DNA of 63,261 nucleotides, counting the filler, from Catajapyx aquilonaris (lineage: Eukaryota): assembly GCA_000934665.2 (NCBI GenBank). It is 2 parts of 2 records of this genome, joined end to end, with 100 filler letters (N's around TTAATTAATTAA, not from the genome) between each part and the next. Parts side by side here need not be neighbours in the genome. Positions count along the whole stretch, not along the records: positions 31,692 to 63,261 come from JYFJ02004513.1; 1 more part is not named here. One strand, given 5' to 3'. This document shows, in pieces, positions 45,925 to 49,981 of this stretch; the first letter of the stretch is position 1, and every line of letters starts with the position of its first letter. Under the pieces are notes generated by a model that searched no databases, was not told where the DNA came from, and saw only the letters and a program-made list of their open reading frames with translations. Position numbers and translations under genes: made by a program.

Positions 45925-48900
45925 ATGGCGGAGGTGGACCTCATCAAAGGAGATGGGTGCTTGACCGAACTGCACTGGGCTGCTGCCAAAGGATTAGTCG
46001 ACCTGGTCGAGAGGCTTCTCGACCCACTAACGATGTCTCCTCAACAATGCGCGTCGGTGGACTGCAGGAGTCGCAGTGGTGCCACCCCGCTGATTGTTGC
46101 GTCCAGAGGAGGGTGGGTGGAGGTGTGCAGGGTGCTGCTGAGGCACGGGGCCAACGTGAACCAGGTGGAGGACACGGAAGGAAAGTCCAGCTTGCACGAG
46201 GCCTCCTCGGAGGGACGGGCGCCTCTTTGCCAGTGCCTCTTGGACAGCGGGGCAGAGGTTGGAGCCAAGACCAACTCGGGAGACACGCCGCTGCATCTGG
46301 CCGCCCGGTCAGGTAAGGTGGAGGTGGCCAGGCTCCTGCTGGAATGGGGCGCCCAGATGGACACGACAAACGGGGAAGACCTGACCCCTAGGACACTCTC
46401 CATACAGAAGGGCAACAGCACGGCAATGGCCATTTTCCTGTTGGACGCCTCGAAGGACCTGCACATAATGGCGGCCATTGGGAACGAGGGACAGGTCCGG
46501 GCGCTGCTTCGGAAGAGAGGAGTGGACCTGAACGCGCGGAATAGCCGCAAGGAAACGCCTCTCATTGTAGCGGCAAGGGCCAACAATAGGACCGCCTGCC
46601 AGATGCTGATTAGCCGCTCTTGCGACCTCAACGCGCAGGACTCGGAGGGCAGAGCTGCCCTTCACCACGCGGCCAGACGAGGACTCATGTCCGTCTGCAC
46701 GCTCCTCCTGGACAGTCGCGCAACTGTAGACATCCGAACCAGGTCGGGAGACACCCCACTGCACTACGCCGCTCTAGGTGGACACCAGGAGGTGGTCCGA
46801 TTGTTGCTGGGCAGACAGGCCTACCCTCAGGCTGCCAACAAGGACAGAATGACCCCTGCCAGTCTGGCCAACCTGAACCAGCACAACGAGCTGTACCGAC
46901 TCCTGATGCAGCATGTGTCCAGCACTGGTCAAGTGCTGGACTTGAGTGGCGATCTGACAGGAAAGGTGTTCATCTCTCACTACATGTCCAACTTCAAGAC
47001 TGAGTCGCTCCTGGGCGAAGGGTCGTTCGGAGTGGTGGTCAGGGCCGAGCACAAGCTGGCCCGGGCTGTGTTTGCAGTGAAGAGGGTCAGACTGCCAGGA
47101 GACGGGGGTCAGAGGGAGGTCATCCTGAGGGAGATCCGATTGCAGGCCAAGCTGGACCACACGAACATCATAAAGTTCCACAACGCGTGGGAGGAGCAGC
47201 CTCCTAGCTGGGCCGAGAAGGAGTTCGACGCCTCCGTGACATACGACAGGTCAACCCCGAAAGGTCAGGAGGCGTCCAGAAGGGCAGCGGAGTACCTGGC
47301 CTCTCCGGTGCCAATCGCAGGACCAAAAGTGGACTGGCTCTACATCCAGATGGAAGTGTGCAGGAAGGAGACGCTGGGCCACCTTCTGGACGAAGGACGG
47401 AGGCTCTACAAGTTCGCCTGCCTCACCTTCTTCCACCAGGCCATGTCCGGAGTCAGCTACCTGCACAACCAACAGCTAATCCACCGTGACCTCAAGCCGC
47501 ACAATATTCTGTTCTCGTTAGACGGGACCAGAGTCAAAATCGGTGACTTTGGCCTGAGCTCCTCTCTTCTGGAACCTTCTGCCAGCATGACTCAACCTAA
47601 TGATTCAACCAAGTGGACTTCAGCGGTCGGAACAGTTTTGTACGCAGCTCCAGAGCAGATGAGAGGCGATGTATATGGTCCGAAAGCTGATGTGTTTGCA
47701 ATGGGACTCGTTCTGTACGAAATTCTGTCCCCATTCGGACCTGATAAGGTAGGGAGGGGCGAATTGTTTAGTTCATTAAAGAAGGACATTAAATGCCTAC
47801 CTGATGGATTTTCGGGACGGAATCAAGACGAAGCGGAGCTCATCCGAAAAATGCTGCATTTAGACCCCTACCACCGAGTGTCCTCTTCGTACGTGGAGCA
47901 AAATGTCCAGAGGCTTCTGGACAACATGAGGATGGTCAGTGTCAATGCATGCATTTAAAAAAAATTATTCTATATGTTTCTTCCTGCTTTCCAGCTGGAC
48001 TCGTCGCGTTACCTGGAGGCCTGCATCAGTGGTGACCTGTCCGAAGTTGAAAAGTGGGTCGATGGACGGGGAGTGGACGTGGTGGAAGCGATGGACAGGG
48101 AGCATGGTCTGAGGGGGATCCACCTGGCGTCTGCAGAGGGTCACATCCAGGTGGTGGAATTCCTCCTGGACCGAGGAGTGGATGTGGACGTCCTGGATAA
48201 GTCGGACAGGACGCCACTCCACCTGGCCGTCATGCGTGGACAAAAGTCGATTGTCCGCCTTCTGCTGGACAGAGGCTCGGATCCAGCCAGAAAGGACATG
48301 GACGGCAGCACCCCTTGGAGATGGGCCAGGAACGAACGACACGACTCAATCTCACTCATGCTGGAGCGGAAGATGGAGGAGCTGCACGGAAAGTCAGCGA
48401 CATCCAGTCAGGCAGGCCGTTTCACCCACGTGGAGCTGAAGGAGGTTGGTCAACTTGTCGTTTAGACATCAGTGTTAAATCAGACCTGATTTATCCAAGT
48501 TCATAGAGATGGAGGAGCGATTTCTGCAAGCCTGCCGCATGAGCAGCCTGGAAGATGTGAGGTATGTTCTGGAGGAGAAGAGGAACAGTAAGGCTGAGGG
48601 CTGGATGAGCAGGAAGCATGGGACGAGGGGCAGTGGCCTTCACGCGGCAGCATCAGGAGGGAATGATGAGGTCGTGGCCTACCTGTTGGGACTCGGGTGG
48701 TCCCCGGATCAGAAGGACGGCGATGGGAAGACGCCCCTTCACCTGGCAGCACGGGAAGGTCACCTCTCGACCTGCGACCTCCTGATTAGGGAAGGCGGGA
48801 GCGTTGGGGCCGTGGACTCCAGTGGGAACCGCCCCATTCACCTGGCCTCCAGGGAAGGACACATCCAGGTGGTCAGGCTTCTCCTGAAGGAAAAGGCTGG

Positions 48901-49981
48901 ACTGGAGGACAAGGAAGGGTGGCGCAATCAGACCCCGCTGCACATCGCGGCAGAGTACAACAAACCAGAAATTGTTGGCCTCCTCCTGACCACGGGAGCA
49001 AACGCATCGGCCACAACCACGGACGGGAAGACACCACTCGACCTGGCAAAGGAGAACAATTGTGCAGGAGTCGTCGCCATTTTAGAGGTACGTCACGGCG
49101 CCCAGCAATCAGCAGAGATAGATTGCTCACTCCTGGCCCTTTCATTTTAAAATCAGGCCGGATTGGGACAAGAGTTGCCGTCATCAGCATCGTCATCAGC
49201 ATCGTCATCAGCATCGTCATCAACTGATCAACCTGAGCTGGCATGTGTCTCACCTGCTGCGATGGACGAGACTCTGGCTTCTTCAGAGGCGCAAGGGGAT
49301 TCCACAGTCCAGCAGGAGGAGACGAGTGACCTGACTGGACAGCAAACTTCTCTCCAGATCCGGGCAGTATTTCTGGAGGCTTGCCGGACAGGCAGGATTG
49401 ACGTGGTGAAGGATCTGGTGGAGACCAGACTCGGGGATTTGGTGACTGTGAAGGAGGGCGAGGAAGAGTTGAATGGTCTCCACCTGGCTGCGAGAGAGGG
49501 ACAGGAAGAGGTGGTCCAGTACCTTCTGGACAGTGGCTGGTGGTCATCGGACGAGAGGAGCGGGAATGGCAGAAGGCCGATCCACCTTGCGGCAGTGAGA
49601 GGTCACCTGTCGACCTGCGACCTCCTGATAAGGAAAGGGGCTAGTGTGAGAGACAGGGACGAGGACGGGAACCACCCGATCCACCTGGCATCGTTGGAGG
49701 GTCACTTGTCGGTGGTCAGCCTCCTTCTATCCAACGGAGCGGGGCTGGAGGTCAAAGGTTGCTGCGACCGCACCCCACTTCACATGGCAGCCTGGGCCAA
49801 CCGACTCGACACCGTCGTCTCCCTGAACCTCAAAAGAGCGGACAAGTCGGCCAAAGACCTGCTCGGAAAGACACCCCTGGACCTCGCTCATGAAAAGGGA
49901 CACACAGCAGTCGCCGGGATTTTGAAGCTCGTGTCACCCCCAGCGGTCATGCAGATAGGAAGTGACATCGATAGACGCTAA
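45925..49981 (+). CDS. Ankyrin-repeat / eIF2-alpha-kinase-like / ankyrin-repeat protein (~1290 aa, 4 exons)
   Basis: Exons 45925-47934 (ATG|GTCAGT), 47995-48444, ~48500-49087 (GAG|GTACGT), 49157-49981; 55-69-nt phase-0 introns join four track ORFs. Kinase motifs LGEGSFG, AVK, RE, LYIQMEVC, HRDLKPHN, KIGDFGL, GTVLYAAPEQ, with an insert between subdomains IV and V. AATAAA at 49990. Confidence 0.85.

Follow-up and report, generated by a model that had tools for sequence, protein, structure and literature searches.

Animals are usually credited with four eIF2α kinases, PERK, GCN2, HRI and PKR, each of which is defined by its sensor domain. The classical members of this family are activated when their sensor domains bring the kinase domains together, and PKR is the antiviral one among them. 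RNase L has a layout in which an N-terminal array of about 9-10 ankyrin (ANK) repeats is followed by a kinase-fold domain. Here we describe a gene of Catajapyx aquilonaris (assembly GCA_000934665.2). It lies on the + strand at positions 45925-49981 of the window, by which we mean the whole stretch of 63,261 nucleotides (nt) that was analysed, and it encodes about 10 ANK repeats, a kinase of the eIF2α-kinase (PEK) family and then about 16 further ANK repeats arranged in three exon-sized modules.

The gene comprises four exons and 1290 codons in the joined reading (Table 1). In exon 1, Pfam places ANK families on residues 16-320 (Ank_2 at 7e-51, Ank at 3e-49 and Ank_4 in 7 stretches) and Pkinase on residues 358-655 (E 7.6e-47). 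Exons 2, 3 and 4 match ANK families only, with E-values of 4e-30, 2e-33 and 2e-49, respectively. A count by eye gives about 10 + 4 + 6 + 6 repeats, or ~26 in total. The modules of the C-terminal part resemble one another, exons 3 and 4 sharing 47% identity over 197 residues (E 3e-49) and exons 2 and 3 sharing 34% identity over 126 residues (E 2e-16), which indicates that this part grew through duplication of exon-sized ANK modules. Exon 4 starts with a low-complexity linker of ~65 residues that is rich in Ser and acidic residues.

The closest PDB matches of the N-terminal ANK array are ankyrin-1/2, DARPins, NOMPC and tankyrase. No dsRBD, Z-alpha, RWD, HisRS-like, PQQ/luminal or KEN domain was found by Pfam at a cut-off of E <= 0.01, and no 19-residue window of the joined protein has a Kyte-Doolittle hydropathy above 1.35. 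Given this maximum, a membrane span is unlikely, and the protein of ~1290 residues is predicted to be soluble. No second kinase was found in the window. A single-sequence fold of the whole of exon 1 was set aside, as its mean predicted local distance difference test score (pLDDT) of 36.7 made it unusable for the packing of the ANK array against the kinase.

Joined together, the exons give 3873 nt, that is, 1290 codons followed by a single terminal stop. The starting ATG has an in-frame stop 13 codons upstream. All three introns are of the GT-AG type and lie in phase 0, and each contains an in-frame stop. The donors are, in order, ATG/GTCAGT, GAG/GTTGGT and GAG/GTACGT, and the acceptors end in TTTCCAG/, ATCCAAG/ and AAATCAG/. 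The length of intron 2 is not a multiple of 3 and shifts the frame, so its removal is required for the reading to continue. The GC content at third codon positions (GC3) is 0.71, 0.72, 0.70 and 0.64 in exons 1-4, while that of the introns ranges from 0.32 to 0.49. It is by splice-site logic that exons 2-4 are predicted to be joined to the kinase exon.

This bears on a reading that is independent of the others discussed below and that we consider unlikely, namely that the C-terminal ANK exons lie outside the kinase protein, either wholly or in some isoforms. From a transcript that ends early or keeps intron 1, a 677-residue ANK-kinase protein would then stop at 47958, where the frame of exon 1 terminates if unspliced, and exons 2-4 would form a separate ANK gene or serve as alternative exons. 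Such a short transcript would be compatible with junctions that are predicted from sequence alone, with the phase of the introns, all 0, so that exon skipping keeps the frame, with an exon 1 that by itself makes a complete ANK-kinase unit, and with an in-frame ATG inside intron 1, upstream of exon 2. However, all junctions are canonical, the introns are near the usual minimal size (55-69 nt), each downstream open reading frame (ORF) opens immediately past the stop of the previous frame, and GC3 is alike across the four exons. Furthermore, the + strand carries no AATAAA between 45208 and 49990, where the first one after 45208 begins 9 nt past the final stop codon, and only about 40 nt would separate the two genes.

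The locus is a genuine animal gene, present in one copy and most likely arthropod. Separate assembly of the reads from two DNA runs of the same sample gave contigs that match 45800-50100 without differences, and the word depth over this interval is even (~30 in run X1). The boundary between the ANK array and the kinase lies inside one contig, and all three introns lie inside another. Since these runs are possibly the source of the genome assembly, the contigs demonstrate consistency and single-copy depth rather than independent support. Because the ANK array and the kinase share one ORF, the separately assembled contigs match without differences and the depth is even, the locus is not an assembly artefact.

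Two local irregularities were seen in the contigs. The linker of exon 4 contains a 12-nt microsatellite (49178-49222, + strand) encoding a Ser-Ser-Ala-Ser run; the contig word depth doubles there (58 vs ~30), and the contigs break at this site. At 46026-46076, run X2 yielded a second contig of 111 nt, at about 1/3 of the depth, that differs at four single bases (A>C, A>G, C>G and G>C) and is probably the other allele. Two of these allele-like differences fall on third and two on second codon positions, in the irregular first ANK repeat.

The assignment of the kinase domain to the PEK family is solid. When the domain was compared with the PDB by phmmer, the 19 best distinct sequences (E 1e-49 to 3e-32) were chains of PERK, GCN2, HRI and PKR, counting 9bf3, whose title says no more than 'non-specific serine/threonine protein kinase'. 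The best E-values were 1e-49 for PERK, 3e-41 for GCN2, 2e-37 for HRI and 7e-37 for PKR. The 20th sequence, a calcium-dependent kinase, followed at 7e-27, an E-value 5 orders of magnitude higher, and NEK7 at 5e-23. In bit scores, PERK reached 172, the HRI chain 132, PKR 130 and NEK7 85. An AlphaFold model of the kinase, built with an alignment of 30 sequences, had a pLDDT of 88.0 and a predicted template modelling score (pTM) of 0.85. A Foldseek search with this model returned PERK at ranks 1-13, followed by GCN2 and PKR; the top 39 matches were all eIF2α kinases (eIF2AKs), and the first other kinase appeared at rank 41.

Phylogenetic trees gave the same family. They were computed from domains cut from the fetched relatives; their outgroup kinase domains came from multi-kinase proteins and included neither NEK nor Wee1, and they contained no HRI sequence. 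A careful tree of 44 rows split the Catajapyx kinase together with all eIF2AK rows from 5 outgroup kinase domains, with an ultrafast bootstrap (UFBoot) of 98 and a Shimodaira-Hasegawa-like approximate likelihood ratio test (SH-aLRT) value of 97. In a quick tree of 77 rows, it likewise grouped with the eIF2AK rows, all of which were set apart from the 7 outgroup domains (SH-aLRT 98). Two proteins considered as HRI representatives, P0303 and P0368, were rejected, as both score best to PERK.

We tallied individual residues in alignment columns over 69 eIF2AK rows and 7 outgroup rows. All catalytic residues are present (K386, E403, H520-R-D522, K524, N527, D541-F-G543 and the APE motif), and the activation segment has both Thr565 and Thr570; the column of Thr565 holds Thr in 58/69 eIF2AK rows and Ser in 8/69. 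The family Trp422, located after strand β4, is found in every eIF2AK row (69/69) and in none of the outgroup rows (0/7), while Met476 of the gatekeeper stretch is Met in 67/69 eIF2AK rows. The NAWEE stretch with its insert, LYIQME and GT.LY..PEQ are present as well, in columns conserved among eIF2AKs, and the insert between β4 and β5 measures 49 residues. From these columns, the very divergent kinase domain is predicted to be catalytically competent.

These results confirm the features described in an original prediction made for this locus and support its interpretation in part. It had described about nine N-terminal ANK repeats, where we count about ten, followed by a kinase with intact catalytic motifs and eIF2AK hallmarks, all of which were recovered in the column tallies. 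The three further ANK blocks joined by short phase-0 introns that it proposed correspond to the ANK-only exons 2-4, with introns predicted at 60, 55 and 69 nt. It had also listed no membrane span and no dsRBD, RWD or HisRS domain, which matches the empty Pfam result and the hydropathy maximum reported above. Its placement of the kinase among the eIF2AKs rather than with NEK or Wee1 held in the PDB top 19, the Foldseek ranking and the 98/97 split, NEK7 scoring only 85 bits. The cytosolic, PERK/PKR-like kinase that it envisaged is in line with the predicted solubility and with the closeness to PERK by score and by one motif.

Within the family, the kinase is probably a derivative of PERK whose insert has shrunk, to 49 residues compared with a median of 225 in PERK. 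PERKs are its nearest rows by path and reach the highest identity to it (39% over 287 columns), and they also take the top single-domain scores, at 180-206 bits. Furthermore, the Pro-Pro doublet that follows the family Trp is shared by 20/21 PERK rows, compared with 0/19 and 2/19 PKR rows and 0/13 and 2/13 GCN2 rows at its two positions. In proteins of mites and of the nematode Pristionchus (P0242, P0284, P0261 and P0001), at least 2 PERK-like kinase domains stand in tandem, with long branches in each case, and the Thr-x-x-Glu-Arg motif of helix αG is missing from some. Divergent PEK expansions are therefore present in other invertebrate lineages as well.

We then asked how the ANK-PEK combination compares with public sequences, using libraries that did not contain the window's own protein. 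When relatives of the kinase region were sought in each of two length classes, the 120 best proteins per class included none above 43% identity and none with ANK in the precomputed Pfam annotation. An exhaustive HMMER search, which covered 1.84 billion cluster representatives, found 683 matches at E <= 1e-30, the best 150 of which are all at <=43% identity to the Catajapyx kinase. A Pfam scan of 34 of these matches, chosen from the top ranks and for odd lengths, found ANK in 0/34, and two ANK queries run by phmmer over the fetched kinase relatives found it in 0/378. In a search that used exon 1 in full, ANK proteins prevailed among the matches. Although 13 of its 120 best matches do have a kinase domain, these score <=47 bits against the Catajapyx kinase, as compared with 180-206 for the PERKs, and they are not PEK-type. 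A word-index search produced no look-alike of the kinase domain or of exon 3. The TPR-bearing kinases P0053, P0079 and P0110 were considered as a parallel case and dismissed, P0079 being PknB/StkP-like.

The ANK-flanked architecture is a real new variant of the known eIF2α-kinase family, absent among the public relatives fetched. Full-text literature searches, in which papers were judged by their titles and the start of their abstracts, brought up no description of an ANK-fused eIF2α kinase, and in the covered text of the family-evolution paper PMC5851622 the word 'ankyrin' has 0 occurrences. The original prediction had held an ANK fusion to be unseen in the known animal eIF2AKs, and indeed none of the relatives fetched has one. 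Its further statement that PKR is phylogenetically restricted accords with a passage of PMC5851622, which gives EIF2AK2 from chordates only.

Regarding function, we favor a reading to which we nevertheless assign slightly less than an even chance, in which a PERK-derived, competent kinase flanked by ANK regulatory arrays acts on eIF2α. The ANK arrays are taken as the regulatory or sensor part because they are the only other domains here and ANK repeats are binding surfaces; their role as a sensor is purely what we infer, while a role of the protein in translation shut-off is plausible. According to this proposal, the arrays would take the place of the sensor found in the classical members, be it luminal or a binder of dsRNA, tRNA or heme. 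They could act as a scaffold for proteins or ligands, either holding the kinase off or clustering it on a partner. Engagement of the arrays would bring kinase domains together, which would then autophosphorylate Thr565, and the active kinase would phosphorylate eIF2α and lower translation initiation.

Several points weigh against this proposal. In the careful tree, the branch of the Catajapyx kinase is long (1.9 changes per site) and arises from a basal polytomy that it shares with GCN2, one placozoan PERK, one further sequence and a PERK+PKR group, so that the subfamily placement of the kinase is not fixed. The PKR clade of this free tree (98/93) does not contain it, and a tree in which it was constrained with 19 PKR/PKZ rows was not rejected by the approximately unbiased test (p-AU 0.711). 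The constrained PKR/PKZ tree even beats the quick free search by 11.5 log-likelihood units, so the placement of the kinase in the quick tree carries no weight. In addition, no orthologue above 43% identity was present in the libraries searched, and the expression of the gene and all its splice junctions are predictions from the genomic sequence.

The remaining points concern functional determinants. The Arg-x-x-x-Asp/Glu pair of the N-lobe, just before the glycine-rich loop, is His352/Asn356 in the Catajapyx protein; its columns hold Arg in 54/56 eIF2AK rows covering the position and Asp/Glu in 64/66. A passage of PMC6467004 describes the R262-D266 salt bridge of PKR as strictly conserved, and its mutation as hindering dimerisation and activation. 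At helix αG, the Thr found in 62/69 rows is replaced by Asp607, which is preceded by an extra Pro606, so that the αF-αG linker is one residue longer. The Glu three residues on (64/69 rows) is Gly610, and only Arg611 of the motif is kept, in a column with Arg or Lys in 67/69 rows. As mitigating observations, Ser, Asn and Gly occur at these αG positions in a few fish PKR rows, and in the AlphaFold model a 13-residue helix starts right after Asp607, at the αG position (domain residues 266-278). Asp, like Thr, Ser and Asn, is able to cap a helix.

According to passages of a deep mutational scan of human PKR (PMC11556786), Thr487, at the start of helix αG, is one of a small number of sites under high constraint, and changes to proline are generally disruptive; Glu490 and much of helix αG tolerate change. 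With the dimer salt bridge and the αG Thr both replaced, neither activation nor substrate docking can work in exactly the way it does in PKR and PERK. These two departures leave family membership by descent intact, but with them the sequence by itself does not warrant the status of a canonical eIF2α kinase.

The same replacements are the main reason to consider a neo-functionalised enzyme, which we regard as somewhat unlikely, in which the PERK-derived kinase no longer recognises eIF2α and instead phosphorylates partners recruited by the ANK arrays, much as other kinases with ANK repeats do with scaffolded partners. The loss of the αG Thr and Glu, the residue inserted in the αF-αG linker and the loss of both salt-bridge partners would all be expected of a shifted substrate, given that Thr487 and R262-D266 matter for eIF2α phosphorylation or activation in the passages of PMC11556786 and PMC6467004 concerned. 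The very long branch would be expected too, and other lineage-specific divergent rows, including a Pristionchus row, also lack the αG motif. Even so, the C-lobe signature is otherwise intact, down to the αG Arg, the model retains a helix at the αG position, the best structural matches are eIF2AKs throughout, and helix αG of PKR tolerates much variation according to the text of PMC11556786.

Returning to the gene as a whole, the absence of an orthologue from the libraries searched could also mean that it is a young chimera or a decaying gene, in which a retroposed or duplicated PERK kinase exon came to lie beside ANK exons in a region rich in transposons and remained unexpressed or functionless. 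The location of the entire kinase in one exon would suit such an origin, as would the transposon remains on both sides (the broken ORFs at 43727-45102 and the Ty3/Gypsy-type element from 60230). We consider it improbable, however, in view of 1290 codons without a stop or frameshift, of catalytic residues that are all intact and of a codon-position GC bias typical of coding sequence. The divergence (<=43% identity, branch 1.9) is, moreover, far too old for an unconstrained open frame.

A different mechanism of sensing is suggested by RNase L, with which the original prediction had drawn a parallel. In an RNase L-like sensor, the ANK repeats would bind 2',5'-oligoadenylate (2-5A) or another small nucleotide and thereby drive dimerisation. 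The parallel stands for the order of an ANK array followed by a kinase-fold domain, which is the one feature that speaks for such a sensor. It fails in other respects: there is no KEN or ribonuclease domain, the kinase is PEK-type and catalytically complete, and the ANK array resembles ankyrins in general and DARPins, the best 60 of its 303 PDB matches including no chain of RNase L. Binding of 2-5A in the manner of RNase L is thus highly improbable.

If the proposal of an ANK-regulated PERK derivative is true, a PERK-like kinase that is soluble and combined with nothing but ANK arrays would represent a fifth sensor architecture, possibly as part of a lineage-specific expansion. The gene would then be a candidate for the coupling of protein or ligand recognition to translational control in arthropods. 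Extending this further, one could envisage an arthropod-lineage family of cytosolic translation shut-off sensors, in which a PERK-derived kinase exon is combined with ANK arrays recognising proteins or ligands derived from pathogens or stress. Such a family would be an independently evolved counterpart of PKR and RNase L, with this locus, carrying ~26 ANK repeats on both sides of the kinase, as its largest member; we hold this extension to be distinctly unlikely. Should eIF2α not be touched by the enzyme, it would offer a natural case of a PEK kinase with a changed substrate, in which the replaced dimer and αG residues mark specificity.

The neighbourhood of the gene contains several further ORFs (Table 1). 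For the one at 55055-57082, arthropod variant ionotropic receptors make up all of the closest atlas clusters, and it is probably a gene for such a receptor, of the chemosensory type. The broken ORFs at 43727-45102 look like mobile-element remains or a decayed gene, and those at 50970-54411 may be exons of a gene for a secreted repetitive protein.

Table 1. Features of the Catajapyx aquilonaris window, with positions counted along the whole stretch.
Feature	Position	Strand	Content	Basis
Exon 1	45925..47934	+	670 codons: start, N-terminal ANK array, linker, entire kinase domain	ORF/ATG, Pfam, GT donor at 47935
N-terminal ANK array	45955..46926	+	~10 repeats, residues about 11-334; repeat 5 degenerate	Pfam
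Kinase domain as analysed	46951..47934	+	Pkinase residues 358-655 = 46996-47889	Pfam
Intron 1	47935..47994	+	60 nt, phase 0, GC 0.32; in-frame stop 47956-47958	GT..AG
Exon 2	47995..48444	+	150 codons; ANK module of ~4 repeats	Pfam Ank_2 4.4e-30
Intron 2	48445..48499	+	55 nt, phase 0	GT..AG
Exon 3	48500..49087	+	196 codons; ANK module of ~6 repeats	Pfam Ank 2e-33
Intron 3	49088..49156	+	69 nt, phase 0	GT..AG
Exon 4	49157..49981	+	274 codons + stop; Ser/acidic linker, then ANK module of ~6 repeats	Pfam ANK 2e-49
Candidate polyadenylation signal	49990..49995	+	AATAAA	Consensus match only
Variant ionotropic receptor-like ORF	55055-57082	+	Single exon, 675 codons	Weak Lig_chan match, E 1.2e-5, below Pfam cut-off
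Ty3/Gypsy-type long terminal repeat (LTR) retrotransposon	60230-63260	+	gag (zinc knuckle), aspartyl protease, reverse transcriptase, RNase H; three overlapping frames; runs off window end	
Amt/Rh-type gene exons	1293-3321	-	Two ORF pieces; match the ammonium transporter family in consecutive stretches	E 1.5e-23 and 3.7e-10
Broken overlapping ORFs	43727-45102	-	Just upstream of the kinase gene	One weak UCH match, E 0.004; others without Pfam match
Long Cys-rich ORFs	50970-54411	-	Several, 109-333 codons	No Pfam match except weak 'New_glue', E 3e-4

Compared with known systems, the gene shares its domain vocabulary with other proteins that contain both ANK repeats and a kinase, such as RIPK4/ANKK1, DAPK1, TNNI3K, TEX14 and the ANK kinases of oomycetes and fungi, which form the atlas clusters nearest to exon 1. 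Their kinase domains, however, come from other groups, the 13 found among the 120 best matches scoring <=47 bits. The likeness to RNase L is one of architecture only, an ANK array being followed by a kinase-fold domain. In contrast to RNase L, the Catajapyx protein has no KEN nuclease, its kinase is of the active type and belongs to the PEK family instead of being a pseudokinase of the IRE1/RNase L type, and its ANK sequences are not specifically similar.

Among the eIF2α kinases, GCN2 differs by its RWD, pseudokinase and HisRS-like domains, none of which Pfam detects in the Catajapyx protein. HRI, which is absent from the trees, is represented in the PDB by a chain to which the kinase scores 132 bits, against 172 to PERK. 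PKR (EIF2AK2) and fish PKZ resemble it as cytosolic members of the eIF2AK family in which the insert is short and a sensor of repeat type, putative in the Catajapyx protein, lies N-terminal to the kinase; a position of the Catajapyx kinase beside the PKR clade is not rejected (p-AU 0.711). Unlike PKR and PKZ, the protein has neither dsRBD nor Z-alpha, with only ANK families preceding the kinase; its PDB score to PKR is 130 bits as opposed to 172 to PERK, and the PKR clade (98/93) forms without it.

Finally, PERK (EIF2AK3) differs in several respects from the Catajapyx protein, which has no signal peptide-like or membrane segment in the hydropathy scan and no luminal PQQ-type domain. The insert of the Catajapyx kinase is 49 residues long, as compared with a median of 225 in 21 PERK rows, ANK arrays stand on both sides of the domain, the dimer Arg/Asp pair and the αG Thr and Glu are replaced, and the careful tree does not group the kinase within the PERKs. 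Nevertheless, PERK provides the top matches in both sequence and fold (phmmer 1e-49, Foldseek ranks 1-13, 180-206 bits), and the two kinases have in common the Trp-x-Glu-x-Pro-Pro motif, an N-lobe insert, the LYIQM-type gatekeeper stretch and the activation-loop Thr.

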